Assembly: GCF_056746865.1 (NCBI RefSeq)
Contig: NZ_JBWKMP010000006.1
DNA length: 63,119 nt
From: a plasmid
Direction: 5' to 3' (one strand)
In this document: piece by piece, positions 3,295 to 61,920 of the stretch
How positions within the stretch are numbered: the stretch's first letter is position 1
Layout: each line of letters starts with the position of its first letter
Position numbers and translations under genes: made by a program
Notes under the pieces: model-generated
The model's database searches: none
What the model was told of the DNA's origin: nothing
Seen by the model: the letters and a program-made list of their open reading frames with translations, nothing else

Positions 3295-3640
3295 CGGCGC
3301 TCCCTGCACACCTGACGGTGTGTAAGGCCACTGCGCCTGATGGCGCAGTCAACCCTTCCGCCGCCACCCCTGCGGCCTGTTTCCCGCTGTGGACTTTCCG
3401 GGGGCTGGAGTAACCACATCCCGTTTCAGCAGTCCAGGGGAAGATATACCGTCCACAAAATTTTTAGCCATAAACCCGGCAAAAAATTTTGCGTCCGCCC
3501 CGGACAGCTGCCCCGTGACGTGGTGACGGACGCCCCATCGGAAAGGTCCACTGCGGGGAGAAACCCCGAAGAAGTGGACGGCAGAAGGGGCTTTCGCCCC
3601 TCCGGGGAGCAACCGGTCGGCCCGGCGACCTGATTCAGCA
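3295..3640 (+). repeat. Frpo/ssi-like element, copy 1 (candidate single-stranded-DNA promoter)
   Basis: ~345-bp GC-rich non-coding block, about 80 percent identical over its length to 6172-6520 and beginning with the shared core CGGCGCTCCCTGCACACCT...GTGTAAGGCCACTGCGCCTGATGGCGCAG; ends just before ORF 3656. Confidence 0.5.
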
Positions 3641-3655
3641 GAAGGAGACGTTTTC

Positions 3656-4090
3656 ATGACAGTCAGCAGCACGATTTCCGTTTTTTGCCGCGACGGGGTG
3701 TTCCGTACCGTTTACTGCCACCTGCACGGTGAGCCGACCTGGAACGGTCGCATCCTGCATACCCACTATGCCACCGGTCAGCAGGCCGAAGCCCTGGTTG
3801 AACACGGTGATATCCGTTGCCTCGGTCCCCGTTGCGACAAACCCGCCGGGCATACGCTTCAGAACCCGGTGGACGGTGTGACGGCTTATTACGGACGTGA
3901 CAGTGGTTTCCGGATGGACAGTGAGGCGCGTGAGTACCGTTCTTTCAGGGAGGCTATTGCCACTGAAAGCACTGAAGAGGTGCGCTTCCATTATGTGTTC
4001 ATCGACGGCTACTGGAAGGTGATGTACCGCACGCCGGAAGGCTGGAAGATGAAAGCGCTCGCGCTGGCACTGCGTCGCTGTCCGGAATGA
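3656..4090 (+). CDS. hypothetical Cys/His-containing leading-region protein
   Basis: 144-aa ORF with AGGAGA Shine-Dalgarno, immediately downstream of Frpo-like copy 1; terminator follows. Confidence 0.7.
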   Translation: MTVSSTISVFCRDGVFRTVYCHLHGEPTWNGRILHTHYATGQQAEALVEHGDIRCLGPRCDKPAGHTLQNPVDGVTAYYGRDSGFRMDSEAREYRSFREAIATESTEEVRFHYVFIDGYWKVMYRTPEGWKMKALALALRRCPE

Positions 4091-6060: not shown

Positions 6061-6171
6061 TGCTTGTAAATGTCGTGCGGTTTTCTCTGTTTTCACCTGT
6101 GCGGGAGTGGTGTGCCAGTGACCACCACATGCCATTGTTGTGCCGTCGTTTTTCTTCAGTCGCGCCGTATG

Positions 6172-6520
6172 CGGCGCTCCCTGCACACCTTACGGTGTGT
6201 AAGGCCACTGCGCCTGATGGCGCAGCTGTCTCTGCCTGTCTGCCGCCGCACTGCGGCCTGTTCTCCGCAGACGGACTTTCCGGGGGTACATACATGACCA
6301 CATCCCGTTTCAGTCGTCCAGGGGGGAGATGTACCAGCCACAAAACTTTTTGCCGCAGGCGTCAAAAACTTTTGCGTCTGCCCCCGGACAACTGCCCCGT
6401 GACGTGGTGAGCGTCCCCCGTCGGAAAGGTCCACTGCGGGGAAATCCCCGAAGACCCGGACGGCAGAAGGAGCTTCGCTCCTCCGGGAAATGACCTGGCT
6501 GTCCCGGCAGTCGTGACGAT
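6172..6520 (+). repeat. Frpo/ssi-like element, copy 2 (candidate single-stranded-DNA promoter)
   Basis: Homologous to 3295-3640 (same 5-prime core and shared downstream blocks such as CTGCCCCGTGACGTGGTGA and GGAAAGGTCCACTGCGGGGA); ends at the Shine-Dalgarno of ORF 6535. Confidence 0.5.
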
Positions 6521-6534
6521 GAGGAGACAATGTG

Positions 6535-7383
6535 ATGAATCAGACTTTACCCACTGCTGACCTGAATACTGCCGGCACGACAGATGTTATTCCGTCTGTG
6601 GCTATCGACCGCATCATCGCGCAGCGTAACGAAGGTATTGCACTGTTCATGCAGGCGATGGAATGCCTGGCGACAGCGCGCAAGATTCTGCTCGATGCGT
6701 CAGGTGATATTTTTCTTTACGGGTTTGAAGACTGCGTGACTGATTCCGTTCGTCGCATAGATAAACCGGAAGAAGCGAAAAGGAATATCACCCGTCTTGC
6801 CGACCGGAAAATCTGGGACCGCCTGATGACAGATACGGGCATGTACACCTTCATGAGTTCATGCCAGCGTGATGAGTGGAACAGCCAGCTGATGAGCGAC
6901 ACCTGTCCTGAAATCACCCTGGACAATGTACTGGCAACATTCCGCCATCTGAATGCCTGCAAGATGCAGACATTTGAACAGGGACTGATTGATGTCTACC
7001 GGAAATTGTCATGGGATTACAGAACCAATAATCCCTGCCGTCTGGGTAAGAAAATCATTATTGAAAACCTGCTGTACCGCTGGAGTAACGGGCGTGTGAC
7101 GCTGGACTGCAGCGGACGGGAGGCACTGGATGACCTGGTACGTCCGTTTTATCTGCTGGAGGGGCGCAACGTTCCTGACTTCAGGAACAGTATCGGGGCG
7201 CAGTATGGTGAATTTCTCGGGAACGGCGACAATGTCGGTAAGCTGTTAGAAGGGGAATATTTTACGGTGCGTGGCTACCAGAAAGGGACCGTACACATTG
7301 TCTTTAAGCGTTCTGACCTTGTTGAAAAACTGAATGATATTATTGCACGGCATTATCCAGGTGCATTGCCGCCACGAGTCTGA
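6535..7383 (+). CDS. hypothetical leading-region protein (family guess: DUF4942-like)
   Basis: ~282-aa ORF with GAGGAGA Shine-Dalgarno, directly downstream of Frpo-like copy 2; the family assignment is from memory only. Confidence 0.7.
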   Translation: MNQTLPTADLNTAGTTDVIPSVAIDRIIAQRNEGIALFMQAMECLATARKILLDASGDIFLYGFEDCVTDSVRRIDKPEEAKRNITRLADRKIWDRLMTDTGMYTFMSSCQRDEWNSQLMSDTCPEITLDNVLATFRHLNACKMQTFEQGLIDVYRKLSWDYRTNNPCRLGKKIIIENLLYRWSNGRVTLDCSGREALDDLVRPFYLLEGRNVPDFRNSIGAQYGEFLGNGDNVGKLLEGEYFTVRGYQKGTVHIVFKRSDLVEKLNDIIARHYPGALPPRV

Positions 7384-15696: not shown

Positions 15697-15869
15697 GACA
15701 AAGTCTCCATTTCTGGAATTTAAATCAAACGGAAAGGTTAAAAATTTATTTGCAGGCGATAAGAGCTAACCAGAGGAATTAGCCGTGTGATAAAAGGATT
15801 GTTGCAGATACGAAAGTCGTTAGAATAGCTGCGGGCGCTTGAGGCTGTATGCCGAAAGCGTTTTGTGGA

Positions 15870-15935
15870 CGGTATACAGCAGAAAGCCCCAGGCGATTTT
15901 TTTATCAATCAACCAAGGGCTCTACTGTAATGCCT
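15870..15935 (-). ncRNA. pndB: candidate PndB (Sok-like) antisense RNA
   Basis: - strand promoter-like TTGCCT-N17-TACTATAAT (15977-15943) directed across the pndC translation-initiation region; boundaries are approximate. Confidence 0.3.
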
Positions 15936-16133
15936 AGACAACATTATAGTAGCCCGATAACCGCCGTAAGGCAATGGAGGGGCTATGATGCCACAGCGAA
16001 CGTTTTTAATGATGTTAATCGTCGTCTGTGTGACGATTCTGTGTTTTGTCTGGATGGTGAGGGATTCGCTTTGCGGACTCCGGCTCCAGCAGGGAAACAC
16101 AGTGCTTGTGGCAACGTTAGCCTACGAAGTTAA
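15930..16133 (+). CDS. pndC: PndC (Mok-like overlapping reading frame)
   Basis: ATG 15930 frame MPRQHYSSPITAVRQWRGYDATANVF... overlaps pndA in a different frame, as in hok/mok. Confidence 0.5.
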   Translation: MPRQHYSSPITAVRQWRGYDATANVFNDVNRRLCDDSVFCLDGEGFALRTPAPAGKHSACGNVSLRS

Positions 16134-16463: not shown

Positions 16464-16614
16464 CGGATTTTCTCTCTGTATTTATGGGTAGTTATCGAAC
16501 TGAATGTGCCAGTTTTTTCAGGAGACGGCAAAGTTGAGATGATTGGTTCTGATTCAGAGCATGAGTTTCCCGGTGTGACGGGCATGTCGGGCGGATTTTG
16601 AGAAACAACAGATG

Positions 16615-16646
16615 TAAAAAAACCGACTGGTGAGGTCGGTTTTTTT
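16615..16646. terminator. bidirectional rho-independent terminator
   Basis: A7-ACCGAC-TGGTGAG-GTCGGT-T6. Confidence 0.55.
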
Positions 16647-16770
16647 ACTGTTCCGTTACAGAGTGGGTGGCTCTGACCGGAGGTCTATAACTGACGCTAA
16701 AAATGATAATTTGTTCTAACTGATTAATGTTCATGCCATAAGTTTACGGGAAAGGCTGACCACCTGATAT

Positions 16771-32627: not shown

Positions 32628-35600
32628 TCATCGGCCGGGGCTGTGGGAGAGATCCTGATGCAGAGTTTTTTCCTGCCTGTCCTCCGGCTTTTGGCTGTTG
32701 GACCACTGCTGCCATGACTGCTCGAAGCCCAGGTTCCGGTACAACGCATCAGGTTGTTTTTCCGGCGTGTAGACAGCAGCAAAAAGCGGTTCTTCCCGGG
32801 TTTTCAGATGAAACTGCATAAGCTCCGGTGCGGGGCGATTCGTGCTGTCAGCATCGTGGTTTACCGCTTCACCATAACCTGCAAAGCGTAAACCTTTGTC
32901 GGTCAGCGCATTGATAACCAGCTGACTGTTGTCGGCTGATGGGGTGGCCAGTGCCGGATACAATGTGCCGTTCAGCCGGACCACACCCTGCAGATGTTCA
33001 TCGGCACTCTGGACAAGTAGCAGGTTGAGTTCACGCGTATCCTTATCCACTGATCCCAGAACAGGTGTCAGCTTGTCAGGGGCTGCGCTGGTTATTTCTG
33101 TTACCTGATTTGCGTTCTGTGGCGCGGAGACCGGATGTCGGTCTTCACCGATAAACAGATGTGAGCCGACGTTTTCTGGCATACGTAACGCTTTCATCTC
33201 TTCGGGCCACCCCTGGCTGATTTGCGCAGCCACTTTCATAAAGGTTTCGACCGGAATCGCCTGAATACGCTGACCTTTATCCGGATTATCATGTGATACC
33301 GAGATCCCGTTGGTAACTGACTCCATGGACCACTTATTCCGGAAACGTGCTTTTTGCTCTCCCGGGAGGATGAATTGTTCGCGGTTCTGAAGTGTCAGTG
33401 TCACCACGTCACCTTTCTGATGGTTTTTGACCAGACTTTCCAGTTGTTCCCCCCAGTAGAGTTTGCTGCCACTGCGGTTTTTAAGCTCAACAAAGAAACT
33501 CTCTCCTTTGCCGGGTGCATATTCAGCACGACCAAAATTGTGCAGTACGGCAGTCACGCTCTCTCCCGGGCGAAGTTTTCCTGGTGGTTCTTCACCTTGT
33601 GCCGCATCTGCCGTTTTGCCAGGTTCAGCCGGTGATGATGCAGGGACGGTGCTGACGGTTGATGCTTCAGGGGCAACTGGGGACGCCGGGGATTGTGTGG
33701 CTTCTTTTTCCTGAACGGGGTCAGGGACAGCCGGTTGTTCAGGGGTATTCCGGTTAAGTTCCGGTGTTGGCTGATGGGTGACAACAGCATCCTTACCGAC
33801 AGCCATTTCCTTGCGTAATTTTTCGAGCTCCAGACGCTGATCAGGCAATTTCATGCGCACATTGATGTTGTGCTCGATAATCAACTGCATCGCTTTTTGC
33901 TTAAAGGCATCACTGCCCGTCAGCTCAATGACGCCACCATAAAAATTAGTGGCCACAGCAAGTGCGGCCAGAACACTGCGATCGTCATTGCTGGCACCGT
34001 TGACCATTTCCAGCCGGTTTACCCGGTCAATGAAGGCAGGTTTGCCATCCAGTTTGTACAGGACGGTTCTGTCTGCTCGTTTTTCCCCTTCAGTGATTTA
34101 ATGATTTCGTCCAGATTGAGCGATATCGGTGCATCAGGACGTTCCGGGGCGTAGACAATACTGTCAGGTGTCGGTGTGGTCGTCGTGGTTTCCGGTGAGG
34201 GCGTGGGATCACTGTTCTCATGTGCCTGTGAATCCGTTTTTTTACGCGTAAAAAAGCCACGCGCTTTGTCGAGAAACGATGAAGTATTATCAGAAGGTGA
34301 TGTGCTCTGAACAGGTTGCTGTGGATTGGGTTCATCCCGGACAGCCGGTTCTGCAGTATCTGTTGTGGCCTGAAGTTCTGACTCATCTGCCTGAACGTGG
34401 TCTGTGTCCGGTTGCGACGGCATATCACTGTTTTCCTGCAGATGCTCAGGATTTTCATTGTTCATCAGCTCCTGATATGCGCTGTAGTTTTCGTATTCTT
34501 CGGGGCCATCTGACTCAGGAAGGAACGGCTCTGGCTGAAGGGGAATGTCTTCAGTTACATGGCTGACCGCCTCTTCCCGGGGAGTATCCGGGGATATTCC
34601 GGTGCTTTGTTTGTCATCAGGCTCCGTCATCACGGTCATTTCCTCTTTGACTGCATCAGGGGAAGGTGATGGCTCGGCTGATTCATTCATGGTTTCAGAT
34701 GAGGGACTGTCTTCAGGGGATGCGGGGGCGGCAGCAGGGGCCGGTATTTCAGGTGAAGTGCCGGATTCCTGTTGTGACTCGTTTTTTTCCGGTTGTGACA
34801 GTTCGGCTTCAAATTCACGCCAGTCTTTATCTGTGGCCACCGAGACAACTTTTTCCGGAGGTTCCGCCGGATGAGCGGGTTCATCAGGGGCAGATGCCGT
34901 TGTACTTTCCGGGGACGCCGGTGATTCTGCAGGGGAGTCCTGAACTACAGAGCTTTCCGTTTGCGCCTGAACGTTATCAGCGTGCCGCTCATCTTTGCCG
35001 TTATTTTCAGTGGCGTGACTGGTAAATGACTGTGTTTCATCAGCAATGTTACTGCTGGAAGCAGCTGGTTGTTCCTGCTGCGTGGCGGACGGCAGAGAAG
35101 GTCCCTGGTCATGGCTGTGCCCTGTATCGGGTGATGTTTCAGGATATTCTGTCGGAGTCATGGTTTTTTCCTCAGTGTGGACCGGTGTAAAAACGAGGTT
35201 GCCGATCACCAGTGCCTCGCGGATTTCCGGGGTGTTACTGTTGGGGGTGGAAACCCCGATGTGTTCTAACTGGGCGTTGATGACATGCTGAAAAGCGGCC
35301 CGTCCCCGGCTTGCGTCCAGGTCATTGAAATCGGTCAGCCCCTGCGCTTTTTCGGCATCGGTGAACGCAGGAAAGATGACCGTTCCTCCTGTCAGTTCTG
35401 CGGCTTTTGTTGCACTGACGATACCTTTGTTAACCCGGATTGCATGATCGTTGTCGGCACAGAAGATAAAGGGGCTTTGCGTCCACTTTTGCCGGGCATT
35501 TTCGGCAACGGCAATCATGTTGCCTCCATCCACCGTCATCAGTACCGGAAGGCCCGTGGCTTCGTGCAGGGAGGCCGCAGTGGCATAGCCCTCGGCAAAC

Positions 35601-43055: not shown

Positions 43056-44210
43056 TTACAGCGGGGTGCTGCCCGGGTTCAGAGGGCAAATCATAATGTA
43101 GTCAGGGTCGTTAACAGGTAACGCTCCGGGAGATGGGACACGTTCGCCTTTCTGTGCTGCAATGGCCAGTGTACGCAACAAAACCTCACTGGCGCGGTGA
43201 ACTGCTTCCTCTTTCGTTGTGGCAGTGACGTGAAGGTTATCAAAATCACCGATCTCAATACGATGCGCTTTCTGCCCATTTTCTTCATCGATGGTCGTGA
43301 TATGGGCAGGATACGGCACAAACCATGCTGCCACTTTTTGTGTCTGCCGCCGGCGGGCATCAAGCTTACTGACCAGTTGCCATGCACGAAGATGAGTATA
43401 CCGTTTCAGCATATTCATGGAACGATGTCCTGATATTGCAGCAATCTCCATTACATTCAGGCTACCCAGTTCGAAGAAGCGGCTTATTGCTTCATGCCGT
43501 AGATCGTGAAAATGCAGGTCCTCGATGCGAAGTCGTTGTGTGGCTATTCTCCAGGCATTTTTAAAGCCGGATGCGGTGTAATCAAAAACATTGCCGTGGA
43601 GATTAACGGGCATCATCTGAAGAAAGTTACGGGCACGTCTGGACAGAGGAACATCCCGTGAGTGACCGTTTTTGGTTTCAGGTAAATGAGCCACACCGTG
43701 GCGCAAATCAATGTGCTCCCAACGTAAGGCCAGTATTTCGCCCTGCCGCATGGCTGTCTCAAGGGCAAGATGGAAAATGACATACAACATCAGATTTTTT
43801 TCGCGGAAATAGCGAGAAAGGCGACGTTCTTCTGAAGACGTTAGCCGGCGATCTCGTCCCGAGGATACTTTCGGCTTGCGAACCAGTTCAACCGGGTTAG
43901 TACGACAGGTTCCCCATTCAACACGAGCAATATTGAACAGAGATGACAGAAGGGCGAGTTCAAGACGTACAGTATTACCTGTAATGGGTTTACCCGTTCG
44001 GGGGTTGATTTCTGCTAAACGAACGTCTCTGTATGTAGCAATATCAACGGTTGTTATTTCGTCCATATTCCGAAGGGCAATGGGATATCGCTTGATAACA
44101 TTGCTCCGGTAAAACTCCTGTTGATGCCCTTTCTTGTGAACAGAAACTGTTTTCAGGTACTTATCCAGTGCGCGTGACAGGGACATTTTACGGATGCGTG
44201 GAGACGGCAT
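43056..44210 (-). CDS. rci: Rci shufflon-specific tyrosine recombinase
   Basis: 384 aa from ATG 44210 ([19 protein letters not shown]...) with tyrosine-recombinase motifs ([14 protein letters not shown]); adjacent to the shufflon repeats. Confidence 0.9.
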
Positions 44211-44261
44211 GCTAACCTCAAAAGAGGCAAAAAATAATGCCAACAATCATTCTCTGCAAGC

Positions 44262-44274
44262 GTGCCAATCCGGT
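44262..44274 (+). repeat. shufflon repeat r1 (core)
   Basis: GTGCCAATCCGGT. Confidence 0.8.
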
Positions 44275-44741
44275 CGGTGGTCTGGAGGCAATAAAGTGAA
44301 CTACTCCGCCTGTAAGTGGTATCAATCATCTGTAGCAATGAATCACTTCATTGGCGGGAAAAGTGGAGGATCTATCTACTACAAACCCATTCAATGCCCG
44401 ACCGGATTTATCATGACAGGTACACGCATGTATGGCATTGGTGATGGCGTTGATGAGGAACACGTTGATGCTTATTGTTGCCCCTTCGGTTAAATCCCAG
44501 CACCAGGAAGATTCAGGCATGTAACAGTAATTGTGCCGCCGGACTCATAATTTCCCCACGCATAATTATTCACATACCAAACCTTGTTTTGGTCGGAGTA
44601 TACCTGCTGAAACCCACCAAAAGGTGCACCATTAAGGTATGTCCACGAACAGTACGCATGTACGCCAATGCTCAGATTTCGGGTGTTTTTCCCGATATTG
44701 TACGTACTGGTAGTGAAGTTCACTTTTGCCGTTGTCCAGAT

Positions 44742-44754
44742 ACCGGATTGGCAC
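44742..44754 (-). repeat. shufflon repeat r2 (core)
   Basis: ACCGGATTGGCAC on + strand. Confidence 0.8.
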
Positions 44755-45132
44755 GGAGGCCAGCAGCGCCAGCAATTTAATCTCAGTTCTGACACGCGAC
44801 GACATAACTACATTTTCCGGTTAAATCAGCTCTAAATGTCCCTTTATGGAAATTGTATTCGTCATAGAAGCCGCATTTCACAATTCGATTGGCATCATAG
44901 GTTGCAACTGACCCCGCAAAATAATTCGGCTTCCACCCGTGCGGATTTTCTGCATTACTGACACTCCATGAGTCAGGCATGTCAATAGGAACGACTTCTG
45001 TTTCTGCCATTTCACGCCCGTCAATACGATAGGTGTTAATACACAGTTTAAACCTCCCTAAGACCTGTGTGTTTTTGGGATATAACGTAAATGTTTTTAT
45101 ATTGTGTCCATATCGACGCTGATTACGCCAGG

Positions 45133-45145
45133 TACCGGATTGGCA
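45133..45145 (-). repeat. shufflon repeat r3 (core)
   Basis: ACCGGATTGGCAC on + strand. Confidence 0.8.
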
Positions 45146-45153
45146 CGTAGGCC

Positions 45154-45166
45154 AGTGCCAATCCGG
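45154..45166 (+). repeat. shufflon repeat r4 (core)
   Basis: GTGCCAATCCGGT, 8 bp from r3 in opposite orientation. Confidence 0.8.
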
Positions 45167-45621
45167 TACGTGGGGGACAAGACTTGGCAAGCCGTTACTC
45201 ACAGTATTCGTCCTACTTTCTGACAGATTACTTGCTTGAAATAGCTTATTGCCAGAATGGTTCACATAGAGGATGCATTCACTACTGCCGGTAGTTGAGA
45301 GCCCAGCAGGGGGCAGTACATTGTTTATTTATGCATCTGGTAAGGTCAATTAAGGATCTGCCGGAGGTGCAAATACCGCCGCCAATACATCCCGTTTTGC
45401 AGTTGGATATGTTGCTCCAGGAAAGCGCCAAGTAGCCTGCAATGTACAGCAAAGCTGATAAAGGCTGTTTTTCCTGCATATGGAAAAACAGCCTTTATCA
45501 GCTTTCCACCACTGTACCTGGGGCAGGTACTTCCTATCAGATGGGCAAACATCCTATCCAACAGAAAATACATCATGTGGTGCCGGGGTTGTTTGCGTCG
45601 TATTTGGATATCAAATTAAGT

Positions 45622-46926
45622 TTAATTGAGAGTTACACAGGACGCAATACAACCTGTCTTGTGCTCGTATTTGTACCATTTTCGTGAACCAGATGGACTC
45701 TCGACTACCTGGCAGTAATGAGAATCCTCAGCATTTCCCATTCTGGCAATGGCACAAAAGTCAAATTGCCCCAAGTAACCAGTGCTGGAAAGTTGAGTAA
45801 CCTTGAGCTTTCCACCTAATGCCCTCCACACACCGGATTGGCACGAAAGTATCGCCCCTGTACTGTCGCGGCCTACAAGCCCGTTAGGGGAGCAGGAAGT
45901 GCCAGCAACGGCAGTTCTTTCCAGTTGTAAGTATTCACCAGTATAAAGGCGACCATCAGCACGAACAGTACCGCCTTTCACCTGACCGCCGGTATAGATG
46001 CCCTTGTTGTTTACACTTCGAACCCATGATCCATCGGACATATAAAATCCGCCACCGTGAGTTTCATTGAGCCAGCCTTTACTGTTACGAGTAATTAACC
46101 AACCATTATTACTTCTGATATCACCGCCAGCGGTGACATTTACGTCAAAGTTTCCGCTATTGCCTTTTACCTGACCGCTGAAAGTGCCATTTACACCATT
46201 CACATTGCCGCTGAAATTACCAGTCTGGGCATTTACTGCCCCAACGTTATTCAGGTTATTTGATCCCATATCAATGGCCGTGTGCATTTTGTTTAAGTCA
46301 GGGCGACCATTGACCTGGAATCTGTAAAGACGATCAGTGTCCTCAGCTGCACCACTAAGTTCATCTGTCGATAACAATACGGCAATATGCCCGTTACCGC
46401 TTTTGGCACCATAATTACTTAAAGCTACTGACCAGGAACGTAATGCACCTGTGGCTGTTTTGCCGTCCTGGATATATCCACCAAGACCAGTGGTAATATC
46501 CTTAGCCATCTGGATAAGTGCTTTCACTGGATAAGGTGTGCCACCACTGGATACAACCATTGCCTGTAGTAATTCCGGGTTTTGGGCGTTTCGAACCACA
46601 TATGCCTGTAACCGCTGCCCCTCGCTGTTTGTCTCAGTAAACCCGCTGGACAAAAAGCCGGTATTTTTCAGCATGGTTGTCGTGATAACGGCAGGAGTTG
46701 TTGTGGTACTACTGCCCTGGAGAGTTGTGTAGTTTTTCCCTATATAAGAGCGGGCCGCACTGGTCCAGTTGCTGACAAGACGTGCTTCAGTTTGCCATCC
46801 TTTTGTTTGAATATAGTCCTGCCATATGCCTGCTCCCCAGGCAACTATGATCATAACAATCAGTAAAGCCGCGCCAGTTTCCAGCGATGCCCAGCCTCGG
46901 TCATATTTTTTCATCAGATTACCCAT
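45622..46926 (-). CDS. pilV: PilV thin-pilus tip adhesin (constant region plus the currently joined shufflon C-terminus)
   Basis: 434-aa ORF with prepilin-like N-terminus; crosses repeat r5 into the shufflon. Confidence 0.85.
45832..45844 (-). repeat. shufflon repeat r5 (core), junction with the pilV constant region
   Basis: ACCGGATTGGCAC on + strand, inside the pilV ORF at ...[14 protein letters not shown]. Confidence 0.8.
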
Positions 46927-49866: not shown

Positions 49867-51421
49867 TTAGGCATCATCGATGCTGAGGCGTTCGTCTTCG
49901 TCCAGAGGGATGATTCTGTCGGCTTCAAGAGGGTCCACCAGGCCTTCATTGATACGGCGAAGAAGATGCTCTACACGACTGATGCCATGCATGTTTTCAA
50001 GCCAGTATTTACGTGCTGCAACTTTGCCGCGTGTTTTCAGAATCTGAAATAAGCGATTATCAGGTTCTATCACTTCAGCAATTACGGTCCTGCCGGTGAG
50101 GCCTTTACCTATTTCACCGCGCTTTCTGCCGTTAATAATTACGTCGTGATTACAGTCGGAGCATCCGTGAGGATTTCGGAACCAGATATTATCTGTACTG
50201 CAGAGTGAATCTTTATTGCAGTGCCGCTCAAGGTAAGCGCGGTCGTCTTCGCTAAGTTCAGGTACTCGCTTTTCCCATGGAATACGGCAGGAGGGACACA
50301 GAGTTGGTACAAGGCGCTGGCTGATCATCCCAATCAGTAATTGCGCATCGCAAATAAGATCGGCATTCATACCCATCGTAATCATTCGCTCCGGTATACC
50401 CAGAGCTGAGTTTGTATGTAATGTCGTCAGAACGATGTGACCGGTCTGAGCCGCGTAGGTGGTTGACATCATCGAGACAAGATCGCGCATTTCCCCTTCC
50501 ATGATGGCATCGGGGTCAAGTCGCATTGCCGATGAAATAGCACGACTCCATGCCAGTTTGACGGCCTCTTCGTCGGATTTGTCACAGATAATCGGGGTTT
50601 GTGTTGCCCCCAGTATCTGTCCTTCCAGCGGATCTTCGATCGTCAGCAGGTGTCGCCCCTGATTATCGTCAAGATATACACGGCAGGCACTGCGTAACGT
50701 TGTTGATTTACCGGAACCTGTTGGACCAGACAGAACTATTTTCCCTTCCGGGCGGCGCAGCATGACGTTCAGCAACCGGATTTGCTCCGGTATAAAGCCC
50801 AGTTGCTTAAACGTGGGAACTTTGTCTCCGTCATCGGGTATCAGGCGCATAACTGCAATCAGACCATCTCCCGTAGGTCTGTGACTGTATCGTGCACCAA
50901 ATATTCCTATTTTTCGCATTAATTGTGGGGACAGGCGCGCATCCTGTTCCCTTTGAGGGAAGAAACTGGTTTCAGTGACATCAGCCATTGACAGAATGGC
51001 TGTTGCGCAAAGTGAATAACCCAGTGCAGGTTGATCTTCATCTACAGTCTGCAGTTCACCGAATATTCTCATGCGAACTTTGAAAATAGACTCTGAAATT
51101 AAAAAATGAATATCTGAAGCACCAAGTTTTCTGGCCGTTTCAAAATAAGAGAGAACTTTCTTCTCACTTTCACTGACATCTGCAAGATCTTTCAGATGAA
51201 TAATCCGTTCTTTCGGACCTTTATTTTTCATCATCCTGACCGGCTTCCTGTAACTCAGACAGCGAGACTACTTTTGGGTTGATGTCAGGGTATAATTTTA
51301 GCAGTTCCTGGAGATTACTCTGTACGTCAGGTCTTGTTCGCTGATTTGTTTCGATGAGAATTTCATGGGTGTCTCCCCGGGATATAAAAAGGAGAGCATC
51401 CTTCAGATTATATTTGTCCAT
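49867..51421 (-). pseudogene. pilQ: PilQ pilus assembly ATPase (GspE-like), frameshifted at the A5 run 51225-51229
   Basis: 66-aa ORF (51221-51421) and 455-aa ORF (49867-51234, Walker A GPTGSGKST) join into ~517 aa if one A is removed. Confidence 0.85.
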
Positions 51422-56392: not shown

Positions 56393-56686
56393 TTAATTGA
56401 TGTGAGGCGGCTGGAGAGGACGAATGACGACTGTCATTCCGTCCGAATGCAAATGCGGGAAAGACCACTGAAATAAGAGATATATAAAAGGAATTGATAA
56501 TTTTTCGTACAGACTTGTTTTCCGTGGGTATGTAATAACTGAAAAACTCAAATCATAAGATTTCAGTCTCTTTATAAGTTTATTTATTCTTGCTGGAGTA
56601 AAGAGATGTGAATGCATGACAATGATTTCATCATTATTAATTGCTTTTGATATCAGAGAAAGCAATACATCCCAGTGTTTCCTCAT
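56393..56686 (-). CDS. hypothetical protein in an AT-rich island (pilK position)
   Basis: 97-aa ORF, ATGA-coupled to the upstream ORF; GC content well below the backbone. Confidence 0.4.
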   Translation of the reverse strand: MRKHWDVLLSLISKAINNDEIIVMHSHLFTPARINKLIKRLKSYDLSFSVITYPRKTSLYEKLSIPFIYLLFQWSFPHLHSDGMTVVIRPLQPPHIN

Positions 56687-56985
56687 TGACTTCGGGCAAC
56701 GTGTGTCAGCATAGGGGCTAAGATGTATAGTTGATTTCTTGCTTCCCTTTTCTTCTTCACAAAGAATGTGAAGTCGTATTTAGATGCAGACCTTACAATA
56801 AGAAGTACACATCTGAAAAGTAGTGGGAAAATGCAAATCACAACCACCACACAGAAATATAACATATAAGGCAATGATAAGTTGTCAGTGTATGGATAAC
56901 GTAAGTATTGCCATGGGGTAGTGATGTACAGACAAAGCGTACACCAAAGCAACCAGAGATATAATGGTACGTTATTATTTTTCAT
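56683..56985 (-). CDS. hypothetical small membrane protein in an AT-rich island (pilJ position)
   Basis: 100-aa ORF with two or three transmembrane segments; AT-rich. Confidence 0.4.
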   Translation of the reverse strand: MKNNNVPLYLWLLWCTLCLYITTPWQYLRYPYTDNLSLPYMLYFCVVVVICIFPLLFRCVLLIVRSASKYDFTFFVKKKREARNQLYILAPMLTHVARSQ

Positions 56986-57109
56986 GTTGGCTGAGGCAGG
57001 CGACTAAAATAACAGACTAAGGAGGATTAACTGTTTAATTCTTTGGAACAAAAAAATGCAGTTCCTGATCATCACACACCATTGAATAAACATTTTGCTT
57101 CGGTTGCGT

Positions 57110-57364
57110 TCATGATAGCCAGTCCTGTAGATGCTGATGGCGGGAGCTGCTGCCCTTGTGCCAGCGGCAGTGGCTGCCGGGAGCACGCTCCAGTCGGAAC
57201 AGAAATCGGTTGTCGCGTAGTACCACCACGAGACAGTTATCCGGCGTGCAGAAACGTCGGGCAAGCTCATCGGGGTCTGTCGGTGTTTTCGTTGAAAACA
57301 GCCTGCGTTTGCAGTGTGCGTCGACGACCAGTATTTGCAGTCGTCCGGGATGTTGCTGTGGCAT
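57110..57364 (-). CDS. small protein, candidate PilI
   Basis: 84-aa ORF from ATG 57364 with strong AAGGAG Shine-Dalgarno at 6-nt spacing; overlapping ORFs on other frames rejected. Confidence 0.4.
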   Translation of the reverse strand: MPQQHPGRLQILVVDAHCKRRLFSTKTPTDPDELARRFCTPDNCLVVVLRDNRFLFRLERAPGSHCRWHKGSSSRHQHLQDWLS

Positions 57365-57535
57365 CAAAGACTCCTTCCGGAACGGGAAAAGAAGCAGCTG
57401 TACCGTCATAACTGCACGTACCGGTTGCGAAAAAACGGCACAAGCGAGTAGTGACAGAAAGAATGTCGGAAACGGCAGGAAGGGCGGTACAGGCTGCGAA
57501 GACTGGAAACGGGGTATGCCGGGGATTACACATCC

Positions 57536-59735: not shown

Positions 59736-60074
59736 AGCAAAGGTCTCCGATGACAACTAAAAACGCTATCACTGAGTTCCTACGCTCATTGGTGATAGCC
59801 CAGACGGGGGTAGGAATACCGGCGTCATCGGAAACCGGCCAGGCTAATGCCTGCCCCGCCTGAGCTACCATAGATGACGACAAGAAATACAAGTTCCTGT
59901 CTTTATGGTATGGCAAAAAACGACGCCAAATGAAGAAATTAACTTCTGCGCCGACGATGACTACGCGGGTTCCTACGCCCGATCACAGTTTTGCCTGTGA
60001 CCAGTAAAGGGTACTTAGTATAACGCACCGAGTCAACTAACAGCTTAAAAAACATACAAAAAAGCGTCAAAACT

Positions 60075-60721: not shown

Positions 60722-60797
60722 CCATAAAAGGAAAACCCCCACTATCTTTCTTACGAACTTGGCGGAACGACGAAAGATAGTGGGGGCCTCACAGAAT
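60722..60797 (-). ncRNA. inc: Inc antisense RNA (copy-number control of repZ)
   Basis: Perfect 15-bp stem (60736-60750 / 60772-60786) with loop containing TTGGCG (60759-60764); - strand promoter TTGAAT-N17-TATACT (60832-60806) and T-rich tail after the stem. Confidence 0.55.
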
Positions 60798-60811
60798 ACG
60801 GGTAAAGTATA

Positions 60812-60901
60812 ATGAAACCGTACCAGAGATTCAACCCTGTGCAGTGTATAAATACACGGCACAATCGCTCCGCCATAAGCGACAGCTTGTGGCAGGTCTG
60901 A
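60812..60901 (+). CDS. repY: RepY leader peptide
   Basis: 29-codon ORF MKPYQRFNPVQCINTRHNRSAISDSLWQV ending at TGA 60899-60901, overlapping the repZ start. Confidence 0.65.
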   Translation: MKPYQRFNPVQCINTRHNRSAISDSLWQV

Positions 60902-61920
60902 AGAATACTCCATATAACGCAGTACACTGGAGTCAGTTAGCACCCGAAGAGCAGATCCGTTTCTGGGAAGACTATGAAGCGGGAAGGGCGACCACTTTCC
61001 TGGTTGAACCGGAAAGGAAGCGCACGAAGCGTCGTCGTGGTGAGCACTCCACCAAACCCAAATGCGAAAATCCGTCCTGGTATCGTCCTGAGCGCTATAA
61101 GGCGCTGAGCGGGCAGCTCGGGCACGCCTACAACCGTCTGGTGAAAAAGGACCCGGTGACCGGCGAGCAGAGCCTGCGCATGCACATGTCTCTGCATCCT
61201 TTTTACGTGCAGAAACGAACGTATGTCGGTCGCAAATATGCTTTCCGTCCGGAAAAACAACGCCTCCTCGATGCCGTCTGGCCGGTTCTGGTCAGCTTCA
61301 GTGATGCGGGCACACATACCGTAGGCATGAGTGTTTCCCGTCTGGCCAGAGAAATCAGCCCGAAAGACAGCAAGGGGAAGGTTATTCCGGAACTGGAAGT
61401 GACGGTCTCCCGCCTTTCCCGTTTGCTGGCCGAACAGGTACGTTTTGGTGTGCTGGGTGTTTCAGAGGAAACCCTGTGGGACCGTGAAACCCGCCAGCGT
61501 CTGCCACGTTACGTCTGGATAACACCGGCAGGCTGGCAGATGCTGGGCGTCGACATGGTAAAACTTCACGAACAGCAGCAGAAACGACTGCGTGAAAGTG
61601 AAATCCGCCAGCAGCTCATTCGGGAAGGTGTTCTGCGTGAGGATGAAGATATCTCCGTACATGCGGCCAGAAAACGCTGGTATCTGCAGCGCAGCCAGGA
61701 TGCACTGAAACACCGTCGTGCAAAAGCGGCAGCCAGTAAGCGCGCCAGACGCCTGAAGAAACTGCCTGCCGACCAGCAGATTCATGAGATGGCAGAGTAT
61801 CTCAGGAAGCGTCTGCCGCCGGATGAAGCCTATTTTTGTTCCGATGACCATCTGAAGCGACTGGCCATCAGGGAGTTGCGTCAGCTTGAACTGACGCTGG
61901 CTGCGCCACCGCCGCACTAG
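60889..61920 (+). CDS. repZ: RepZ replication initiator (IncFII-RepA-family)
   Basis: 343 aa from GTG 60889 (no in-frame ATG available); preceded by repY and the Inc hairpin, followed by a DnaA box; the ORF-track start at 60844 is an upstream extension. Confidence 0.75.
   Translation: MAGLKNTPYNAVHWSQLAPEEQIRFWEDYEAGRATTFLVEPERKRTKRRRGEHSTKPKCENPSWYRPERYKALSGQLGHAYNRLVKKDPVTGEQSLRMHMSLHPFYVQKRTYVGRKYAFRPEKQRLLDAVWPVLVSFSDAGTHTVGMSVSRLAREISPKDSKGKVIPELEVTVSRLSRLLAEQVRFGVLGVSEETLWDRETRQRLPRYVWITPAGWQMLGVDMVKLHEQQQKRLRESEIRQQLIREGVLREDEDISVHAARKRWYLQRSQDALKHRRAKAAASKRARRLKKLPADQQIHEMAEYLRKRLPPDEAYFCSDDHLKRLAIRELRQLELTLAAPPPH

Follow-up and report, generated by a model that had tools for sequence, protein, structure and literature searches.

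At the distal end of its pil operon, the plasmid analysed here carries what is best explained, with high confidence, as a Rci/sfx multiple-inversion switch (shufflon) on an IncI1-type conjugative plasmid, in a form that looks recombinant between IncI1 and IncI2. The shufflon is long understood: it lets IncI plasmids, which rank as major carriers of the resistance genes ESBL and mcr-1, mate with a wider range of recipients. The type of switch and its mechanism are known, and the mechanism gains nothing from the present copy; what is new, judged by sequence comparison, is the combination of an IncI1 backbone and rci with IncI2 alleles of C, C', A' and the end of the pilV constant region. The present copy is an unusual instance of a known system, a cut-down patchwork with cassettes from two plasmid families. 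Below, the window is the whole 63,119-bp stretch of DNA that was analysed, the R64 reference is NC_005014 and the IncI2 reference is pMRY16-002_4 (six sfx). The locus consists of the following elements.

43056-44210, minus strand: rci, shufflon-specific tyrosine recombinase (384 aa from ATG; the mechanical ORF extends to 44246 from TTG)
44262-44280, plus strand: sfx w1, GTGCCAATCCGGTCGGTGG, triplet CGG; opens the C' tail (76 aa, ending at 44493)
44281-44735, no single strand: interior of the C segment, with convergent C' (plus) and C (minus) frames; IncI2 allele
44736-44754, minus strand: sfx w2, GTGCCAATCCGGTATCTGG, triplet ATC; opens the C tail (87 aa, ending at 44490)
44783-45127, minus strand: body of the single-ended hybrid segment, with the N-terminal part of B (45127 to ~44970) and the C-terminal part of D' (~44970 to 44783)
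45128-45146, minus strand: sfx w3, GTGCCAATCCGGTACCTGG, opening the B::D' hybrid tail; its triplet ACC is that of R64 B, B' and C
45147-45154, no strand: 8-bp spacer between the back-to-back w3 and w4, GTAGGCCA
45155-45173, plus strand: sfx w4, GTGCCAATCCGGTACGTGG, opening a 27-aa ORF that ends at 45238; its triplet ACG is that of R64 A and A'
45174-45621, no strand: scrambled w4-w5 interior with remnants of A', the B 3' end, B' and A, none with its own sfx
45622-45825, minus strand: A' tail body, IncI2 allele, now fused to pilV as the currently expressed C-terminus
45826-45844, minus strand: sfx w5, GTGCCAATCCGGTGTGTGG, triplet GTG; expression junction with the pilV constant region
45845-46914, minus strand: pilV constant region, 357 aa, from MKKYDRGW up to CQSG

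The sites and frames can be read directly in the window. An exact-match search for the 19-bp sfx, GTGCCAATCCGGTNNNTGG, returned exactly five matches, spanning 44262-45844, and still five when two mismatches were allowed; the mean expectation in shuffled sequence was 0.06 matches, and none of 100 shuffles reached five. The sites stand in the orientations + - - + -, precisely as the first-pass annotation had described them, and the 8 bp that it gave between the third and fourth are the spacer at 45147-45154. Its CQSG-x-W junction was likewise recovered at every repeat, all five reading into open frames as TGC CAA TCC GGT NNN TGG (C-Q-S-G-x-W, with x being R, I, T, T and V). The left arms of all five differ, that of w1, CATTCTCTGCAAGC, being the IncI1 rci-proximal slot and identical to R64's. 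[quoted passage not shown] The 8-bp pair and the direct repeat pair had been taken for oddities, a view that we rejected, both being canonical features of R64: back-to-back pairs 8 bp apart occur twice in R64 (2733/2742 and 3234/3243 of the stretch compared) and twice in pMRY16-002_4 (3140/3149 and 3641/3650 of the stretch compared), and R64 D is flanked by direct sfx.

The recombinase, the adhesin gene and their surroundings bear out the shufflon call. Rci matches exactly a cluster with RCI1_ECOLX ('Shufflon-specific DNA recombinase'), is 100% identical to R64 Rci over 384 aa (tblastn) and is recognized by Pfam as Phage_integrase (E = 6e-24); its gene lies 52 bp from the first sfx and is 99.93% identical to that of R64 in DNA and only 72% to the IncI2 gene. 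Inactivity of rci, which the first-pass annotation had named as a point that would count against its reading, is very unlikely, because all 384 aa are identical to those of the experimentally characterised R64 enzyme. The pilV constant region belongs to Shufflon_N (Pfam, E = 9e-187) and is 98.4% identical to R64 overall, with its last ~55 nt (45845 to ~45900) IncI2-identical. In an exact-protein look-up against a collection of 15 billion sequences, Rci and the 99-aa C' ORF were the only matches, and PilV, the hybrid ORF and the C ORF had none. The locus forms the distal end of the pil operon, with homologues of R64 pilL to pilU directly upstream, of which pilS, pilT and pilU are the neighbours of pilV (PilS and a PilU-type peptidase by profile search); NCBIfam gave no useful names for PilV, PilS and TraE. 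The replicon (PK-repZ/repZ) and the transfer genes are IncI1. An adjacent rci, asymmetric sfx that include inverted pairs, and a Shufflon_N pilV with alternative C-termini at the end of a pil operon place the locus among the shufflons, and 'compact', as it had been called, is apt, with five sfx and three segments over 1,583 bp compared with seven and four over 1,937 bp in R64. Read in the direction of pilV, the constant region is followed by w5 opening onto A', by scrambled remnants, by w4 facing back towards pilV and, after 8 bp, by w3 opening onto the B::D' hybrid; w2 then opens onto C, C' is read back from w1, and rci closes the array.

Counted from the Cys of CQSG, the tails opened by w1 to w5 measure 76, 87, 120, 27 and 73 aa. 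The range of 27 to 116 aa given earlier holds in substance, but its counting is inconsistent, '116' being the 120-aa tail after CQSG and '27' being counted from the Cys. Similarly, the five alternative PilV C-termini stand as five open frames, but only four look functional, because the 27-aa tail is a remnant and not a credible adhesin: its first 26 nt (45155-45180) match the start of R64 A' exactly, it then runs out of frame into the 3' end of R64 B, and it has no Cys except that of CQSG. The set is likely to comprise four plausible adhesins and one likely dud, the Cys-free 27-aa remnant probably being a non-adhesive null. The comparison with R64 segments that the first-pass annotation had proposed identified A', C and C' as alleles of named R64/IncI2 tails (names as in PMC5430464). 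The whole stretch 44262-44754 is 99.6% identical to pMRY16-002_4 (3641-3149 of the stretch compared) and 81% to R64, and k-mer painting agrees. At the protein level, the C' tail is identical to IncI2 C' in 76/76 positions and to R64 C' in 71/76, the C tail to IncI2 C in 87/87 and to R64 C in 72/87, and the A' tail to IncI2 A' in 73/73 and to R64 A' in 66/73. More than 400 PLSDB records contain the A' tail body at 100% identity; the 30 that were listed all have a size of 57-95 kb, and the single record inspected was typed as IncI2. That the receptor of each tail is not evident from sequence needs qualifying, since the tails are alleles of named ones and LPS ligands have been published for R64 C and C' (PMC5430464), within a set of published ligands that covers R64 PilVA, B', C and C' (PMC5430464, PMC9045228); C and C' here share 83% and 93% protein identity with the R64 alleles whose ligands are published. 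Beyond the first-pass annotation, the analysis adds the B::D' hybrid, the reading of the 27-aa tail as a remnant, the IncI1/IncI2 mosaic and the risk of misassembly.

In the known mechanism of such switches, Rci, encoded just downstream, binds the 7-bp core (GTGCCAA) and the conserved 12-bp right arm of sfx and exchanges strands in the core, between inverted sites only, so that the intervening DNA flips; the tail then placed behind the last constant codons of pilV forms the C-terminal, receptor-binding end of the thin-pilus tip adhesin, and the choice of tail determines which recipients are open to mating in liquid. The first-pass annotation held that the permitted inversions are not evident from the orientation pattern, but they can be enumerated from the published rule that Rci recombines inverted sfx only, with crossover in the 7-bp core and the right arm conserved (PMC11852207, PMC9045228). 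Five single inversions are allowed from the present state.

w5 x w4: 690 bp, placing the 27-aa tail onto PilV
w5 x w1: 1,583 bp, the whole region, placing C' onto PilV
w2 x w1: 493 bp, the C segment
w3 x w1: 885 bp
w4 x w2: ~400 bp, the hybrid segment

C and the B::D' hybrid would each need two inversion steps to reach pilV. In the model, 32 of the 48 conceivable arrangements of the segments, by order and orientation, can be attained, and no tail is barred from pilV, with the constraint that the single-ended hybrid segment points away from pilV when first and towards rci when last. The predicted PilV isoforms are 430 aa with A', 433 with C', 444 with C, 477 with B::D' and 384 with the remnant. 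In a three-segment IncI2 shufflon, all 48 isoforms have been seen by long-read sequencing (PMC5430464). The window is a single consensus sequence, and inversion in the present plasmid stays predicted; a comparison of plasmids lends it indirect support, the tails occurring in another order and behind other left arms in related plasmids. The left arm CATTCTCTGCAAGC carries B in R64 and C' in pRHB17-C10_3 and the window, and a related draft contig, AARTTZ010000018.1, which ends inside the shufflon, places the window's C and A' tails in a back-to-back pair with 8 bp between them. The same tail and right arm behind different left arms is the footprint expected of core exchange.

The B::D' fusion is in frame and, with its sfx, makes a 120-aa tail. 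The stretch 44970-45147 is 95.6% identical to the 5' part of R64 B, including a 134-nt exact block, and 44741-44972 is 92.7% identical to the 3' part of R64 D', the two joining at a shared CTCA. The D' part is itself a patchwork, IncI2-identical at 44853-44968 and R64-identical at 44757-44860. Canonical B/D' forms were found in more than 1,400 records in the PLSDB search; none of the 72,556 PLSDB records covers at least 80% of the 91-nt B::D' junction, 44760-45320 gave just multi-piece matches of at most 89% in 5,426 complete E. coli genomes, the exact 28-nt junction had no match in JGI metagenomes and GTDB species genomes, and a search of the 120-aa tail against 5.8 billion protein clusters yielded no full-length hybrid. 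Cluster matches with '100% coverage, 58% identity' were rejected as hybrids, being ordinary D' aligned with gaps. Also rejected was an ancestral B::D' ORF from which R64 B and D' derive, the B side being R64-identical, the D' side an IncI2/IncI1 patchwork and the junction unique among the collections searched. Two further hybrids in the protein database, one from Salmonella Saintpaul that combines C' with D' (C'::D') and one in which a foreign C-terminus follows the N-terminus of B, hint at recurrent shuffling. The receptor specificity of the B::D' tail, if any exists, would be new.

The mosaic itself is observed as sharp, long exact IncI1 and IncI2 blocks. The present copy looks like a recombinant of IncI1 and IncI2 shufflons in which illegitimate joins would later have fused B to D' and destroyed A and B'. 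We lean slightly towards the view that this mosaic is real, that is, that a co-resident IncI2 plasmid was the source from which an IncI1 plasmid acquired C/C' and A' together with a portion of D' and the terminal stretch of the pilV constant region, with one crossover inside a shared sfx, and that an illegitimate in-frame join then created the new 120-aa tail. The switch from IncI1 to IncI2 in pilV occurs at a shared GCTGGCG plus one unique base; joins with only 7-8 shared bases, as in pilV and D', are unusual for homologous recombination and count against this view. Pure Rci-mediated cassette exchange as the source of the whole mosaic was rejected, only the w1 switch coinciding with an sfx and the pilV-side switch lying ~55 nt outside. 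For the rci/C' join, searches of PLSDB, E. coli genomes and GTDB genomes gave a best full-length match of 90.9% or no match, and for the pilV/A' switch region the best in PLSDB was 92.5%; the chimeric joins tested (B::D', rci/C' and pilV/A') occur in no complete plasmid searched. If the mosaic is real, inversion would not be the only way in which tails evolve, with cassettes also passing between incompatibility groups and domains being shuffled within cassettes, and the presence of IncI1 and IncI2 cassettes on one plasmid suggests that adhesin repertoires can move between plasmid families.

A rather unlikely alternative is that the shufflon exists but that its interior as given here, and possibly the mosaic and the hybrid too, corresponds to no real molecule, being a consensus or graph path of mixed isomers, perhaps with a co-resident IncI2 plasmid, and the true structure containing more canonical intact segments. 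The stretch 45174-45620 speaks for this: it matches R64 only in exact blocks of 12-42 nt in alternating orientations, from A' (plus), A (minus), B and B', with 16 gap openings in 539 aligned nt, has a best PLSDB match of ~79%, and contains a perfect 24-nt palindrome (45451-45474 / 45482-45505). Absence of the hybrid, rci/C' and pilV/A' joins from the 72,556 plasmids and 5,426 complete E. coli genomes points the same way, as do frameshifts relative to R64 in three other genes of the window, the documented misassembly of shufflons, including segments replaced by unrelated sequence (PMC5430464), and the co-residence of IncI1 and IncI2 plasmids in single isolates (PMC8025056). Outside the scrambled stretch, however, there are long, clean blocks of 104, 116, 134 and 493 nt, and the switches fall on 4-8 shared bases; a k-mer graph chimera would need a longer overlap, and a mixed consensus would not be as clean. 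Moreover, an independent draft, GCA_012150715.1, with 34 backbone differences from the window, joins an IncI1 rci to an IncI2-allele C segment and then an IncI2-like A, and the hybrid ORF is kept open across a compensated -4/+1 indel pair and the in-frame junction. The w4-w5 interior may reflect either genuine decay or an assembly artefact; because shufflons are notoriously misassembled and 45174-45620 is scrambled, its content, and hence the 27-aa tail, may not be real. The locus is a cautionary example of how badly annotation pipelines and assemblers handle shufflons, and isoform counts and 'novel' tails taken from one consensus therefore need read-level confirmation.

Least probable, and in our judgement improbable, is a decaying relic with intact sites, an intact Rci and DNA that may still flip, the mating role having been lost with a pilQ frameshift that leaves no thin pilus and the cassette set eroding (A and B' lost, one stub, one hybrid): pilQ, the pilus ATPase gene, does have its frame broken at codon 65, around 51228, relative to R64; sogL and traY are interrupted as well, around 34088 and 19160; searches with the R64 proteins do not detect pilJ or traD; and, of the seven R64 tails, two survive as debris lacking an sfx, with one sfx opening onto the 27-aa Cys-free stub. 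Against the relic, four tails are intact, three of them identical to alleles of hundreds of circulating IncI2 plasmids, Rci is identical to an active enzyme, pilQ retains a 455-aa ORF with its own ATG, the frameshifts, lying in patches of local divergence, could come from allelic variation or sequencing error, and segment loss is common in fully transmissible IncI plasmids, with three segments in ColIb-P9 and one or two in many IncI2 plasmids (PMC5430464). The pilQ frameshift weighs on the preferred reading too: should it be genuine, the pilus may go unassembled, and the switch would then be without phenotype.

The preferred reading, a recombinant shufflon on an IncI1 plasmid, is best seen against known systems. 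The R64 (IncI1) shufflon was reportedly described by Komano et al. in 1987 with segments A, B, C and D, seven sfx and seven PilV tails. The present copy shares with R64 an identical Rci protein, 98-99.9% identity over rci, the left arm next to rci and the greater part of the pilV constant region, the sfx core and right-arm consensus, the 8-bp back-to-back pairs, a near-identical N-terminal part of B, and a single-ended segment flanked by direct sfx, as D is in R64. Unlike R64, with its four segments and seven sfx, it is built from three segments with five sfx, retains B' and A as debris with neither sfx nor open frame, and carries B and D' as one 120-aa ORF; against the R64 alleles, its C, C' and A' reach only 81% identity in DNA and 83-93% in protein, and the triplets ATC and GTG are absent from R64. 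The locus falls outside the R64-type class of four segments and seven tails, each with its own sfx.

The IncI2 shufflon of R721/pMRY16-002_4 has segments A, BD (B' and D') and C and six sfx (PMC5430464). Here the C segment matches it at 99.6% identity between the bounding sfx, both included; the A' tail and, in the pilV constant region, the last ~55 nt match it at 100%, and the D' part at 44853-44968 is likewise identical. The triplets ATC and GTG recur, and there are again three segments, one a fusion involving D'. In contrast to the IncI2 plasmids, the backbone, replicon, transfer genes and rci here are IncI1 and the A tail is destroyed; moreover, the IncI2 fusion sets D' and B' on opposite ends, with two ORFs and two sfx, whereas D' here shares one frame, one ORF and one sfx with B. 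The R721-type class (IncI2 rci and backbone, double-ended BD) does not accommodate the locus, although its C, C' and A' alleles do match IncI2.

TP114 (IncI2) has four double-ended segments and eight functional PilV variants; its tails have been shown experimentally to set the recipient range, and PilV without a variable domain fails in liquid mating (PMC9045228). By description, it shares with the present copy the kind of switch, the sfx architecture and the variable triplet at right-arm positions 7-9, and has C, C', A, A', B', D' and an R64-like B; it differs in having eight intact tails compared with four or five here, and no in-frame B::D' hybrid is described for it. ColIb-P9 is a naturally reduced three-segment IncI1 shufflon with A, B and C only (PMC5430464), so that segment loss is ordinary. 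By description, however, ColIb-P9 is simply without D, whereas the present copy keeps parts of D' and B as a fusion and has partly IncI2 alleles.

The window is an IncI1-type conjugative plasmid, with 98.3% identity to plasmids of that type over its first 25 kb and an IncI1 replication control element, and its five sfx sites are flanked by two minus-strand genes, pilV and rci. Upstream of pilV lie pilU, pilT, pilS and the remaining pil operon, and downstream of rci lie traE, traF and IncI1 transfer genes. The Rci protein exactly matches the cluster holding RCI1_ECOLX and is 100% identical to R64 Rci (384 aa). The sfx pattern, GTGCCAATCCGGTNNNTGG, has exactly five matches in the 63,119-bp window, and still five when two mismatches are permitted; dinucleotide-preserving shuffles gave a mean of 0.06 matches by chance, and 0 of 100 reached five. 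The features are as follows.

43056-44210, minus strand: rci, Pfam Phage_integrase
44262-44280, plus strand: sfx site w1, exact pattern match
44736-44754, minus strand: sfx site w2, exact pattern match
45128-45146, minus strand: sfx site w3, exact pattern match
45155-45173, plus strand: sfx site w4, exact pattern match
45826-45844, minus strand: sfx site w5, exact pattern match
45622-46914, minus strand: pilV, Pfam Shufflon_N, E = 9e-187
60728-60876, plus strand: PK-repZ (IncI1 replication control), Rfam match above the gathering score, adjoining the repZ ORF at 60844-61920

Other Rfam matches above the gathering score were a C4 antisense RNA (59788-59875, minus strand), the sok antitoxin RNA (15833-15990, plus strand) and AgrB (16614-16694, minus strand).

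The first-pass annotation had read the repeats and PilV tails as a shufflon, and this reading stands on the Shufflon_N pilV, the R64-identical Rci and the five in-frame sfx sites. The pattern search of the window bore out the orientation + - - + - that it proposed, and the site coordinates confirmed the 8-bp spacing of w3 and w4. As it had also claimed, each site encodes a C-Q-S-G-x-W junction, from which the reading frame stays open into a separate tail. Counted from the Cys, the tails from w1 to w5 measure 76, 87, 120, 27 and 73 aa; the earlier range of 27 to 116 aa was right in substance but mixed two counting conventions. With segment names after Sekizuka et al. (PMC5430464), the layout in the direction of pilV is the constant region, w5 opening A' (73 aa), which is the tail expressed in the present arrangement, remnant sequence, and w4 facing back with 27 aa; then, after the 8 bp, w3 opening a hybrid B::D' tail (120 aa), w2 opening C (87 aa), C' (76 aa) read back from w1, and rci. 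The shufflon thus comprises five sfx sites and three segments, with four tails that look credible and one stub.

Rci recombines facing sites only, and the asymmetry of sfx is thought to block deletion between direct repeats (PMC11852207; PMC9045228). Across plasmids, the right arm of the site travels with each tail and left arms remain with the slot, consistent with these published rules. We modeled inversion with cuts at the core, leaving out the back-to-back 8-bp pair. In the model, five inversions are allowed from the present state (w5 x w4, w5 x w1, w4 x w2, w3 x w1 and w2 x w1), and a breadth-first search reached 32 of 48 possible arrangements of segment order and orientation; treating the two orientations of the 8-bp spacer as distinct raises this to 64 states. 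Each of the five tails could reach pilV, C' and the stub in one step and C and B::D' in two. Inversion in this plasmid is predicted from the sites and Rci, the window being a single consensus. Long-read sequencing of a three-segment IncI2 shufflon detected all 48 isomers, at uneven abundances for which a link to variation among sfx sequences was reported (PMC5430464).

The B::D' tail joins parts of two known tails at a CTCA common to both. Its residues 1-59 align with the N-terminal part of R64 B, including a 134-nt exact block, with a -4/+1 indel pair near the start that recodes about nine residues and restores the frame. Residues 60-120 align with the C-terminal part of D' and are identical to R64 at 60 of 61 positions. 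At the nucleotide level this part is itself a patchwork, in which 44853-44968 has the IncI2 allele exactly and 44757-44860 that of R64. Besides the CQSG Cys, the tail has four Cys, the same as D'. The junction had no match in PLSDB, 5,426 complete E. coli genomes, 5.8 billion protein clusters, JGI metagenomes or GTDB species genomes. Other natural hybrid tails were found: a 'Shufflon protein D' of Salmonella Saintpaul (P0003) with the C' N-terminus joined to D', and an E. coli protein (P0037) with the B N-terminus and an unrelated C-terminus.

The cassettes combine IncI1 and IncI2 alleles. Sequence from rci up to w1 shows 99.93% identity to R64. Between w1 and w2, precisely the extent of the C segment, identity is 99.6% to the IncI2 plasmid pMRY16-002_4 and just 81% to R64. 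More than 400 PLSDB records match the A' tail at 100%; among the matches listed, 30 of 30 are 57-95 kb, and the one examined was typed IncI2. The triplets of w2 (ATC) and w5 (GTG) are absent from R64 and correspond to the 'f' and 'e' sfx types known from R721 and TP114 (PMC9045228). At w1, the switch falls within 21 nt common to both types around the sfx, compatible with Rci-mediated exchange. Rci alone is nevertheless rejected as the source of the mosaic, because the pilV-side switch lies away from any sfx: IncI2 identity of A' continues through about 55 nt of the pilV constant region, then gives way to IncI1 sequence at a common GCTGGCG, where the join has one unique base. The rci/C' and pilV/A' joins were absent from all complete plasmids and complete E. 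coli genomes searched. An independent E. coli draft contig, AARTTZ010000018.1 (GCA_012150715.1), shares part of the mosaic. Its backbone is IncI1, with 99.5% identity to the window, and at 6069-7121 it has the same IncI2-allele C segment, 8 bp, the same A' and, beyond that, an A region with about 80% identity to R64, as for the IncI2 allele. Its shufflon order is unlike that of the window, and the contig stops inside the shufflon. IncI1 and IncI2 plasmids co-reside in single isolates (PMC8025056). Exchange of cassettes between IncI1 and IncI2, together with domain shuffling of adhesin repertoires, is a candidate reading and the sole mildly novel thread here.

The segment between w4 and w5 is scrambled. 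Site w4 and the following 7 nt are identical to the R64 A' start, after which the sequence tracks the R64 B 3' end and then A' again. The resulting 27-aa ORF is short and hydrophobic with no further Cys, whereas genuine tails all have two or four; a null PilV variant is expected, by analogy with TP114, where swapping the variable domain for a FLAG tag abolished liquid mating (PMC9045228). The interior (45174-45621) is built of exact blocks of 12-42 nt that match R64 A', A, B and B' and alternate in orientation, with 16 gap openings against R64, and PLSDB offers nothing above about 79% for it. Since only such short remnants persist, A and B' lack both an sfx and an open frame in the window. A perfect 24-nt inverted repeat (45451-45474 and 45482-45505, 7-nt loop) inside the A remnant codes GKTAFISF on both strands, and is either a scar left by fold-back or template switching or an artefact of the consensus. 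Shufflons are often misassembled, with segments sometimes replaced by unrelated sequence (PMC5430464), and the scrambled interior may be of this kind. Against a wholesale artefact, however, the sequence outside 45174-45620 falls into long, clean blocks with switches at 4-8 common bases, and the sister contig supports IncI2 cassettes on an IncI1 backbone.

Other pilus and transfer genes have frame breaks or divergence relative to R64. The thin-pilus ATPase gene pilQ (49870-51421, minus strand) reads in two frames against R64 PilQ (residues 1-65 and 65-517), broken near 51228 at codon 65 by one inserted nucleotide in a locally divergent patch; an ORF of 455 aa that has its own ATG persists, and the break reflects either a true pseudogene or an error in the sequence. 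Two frames against R64 are also found in sogL (about 34085-34091, in a locally divergent patch) and traY (about 19160, a single-base deletion within an otherwise 99% identical stretch). If these breaks are real, the thin pilus may not form and the switch would be phenotypically silent. R64 PilJ and TraD had no tblastn match in the window; PilK matched at only 73-86%, split over two frames (56396-57400), and this end of the pil operon is either a divergent allele or rearranged.

[quoted passage not shown] Identity to the R64 alleles is 83% for the window C and 93% for its C', and both have 100% identity to the IncI2 alleles; their specificities are probably similar to those of R64 C and C'.

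We extracted sfx sites and tails from R64 (IncI1), which has seven sites and tails of 85, 87, 76, 87, 99, 73 and 117 aa, and from the IncI2 plasmid pMRY16-002_4, which has six sites. R64 carries segments A, B, C and D, ColIb-P9 carries A, B and C, and the IncI2 plasmid R721 carries A, BD (with B' and D') and C (PMC5430464). At its 3' end, the R64 B ORF is paralogous, out of frame, to the 5' part of A' (2401-2480 versus 3598-3680 of the R64 record, L003), so that the canonical B tail already looks like an old fusion. Neither the 8-bp pair nor the direct repeat pair is an oddity, as both are canonical in the references: back-to-back sites 8 bp apart, like w3 and w4, occur as two pairs in R64 and two in the IncI2 plasmid, and the single-ended D segment of R64 is likewise bracketed by a direct pair. 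The locus is a genuine, well-understood switch system and not a new kind; as an instance it is unusual in its reduced set, its B::D' fusion and its combination of IncI1 and IncI2 alleles.
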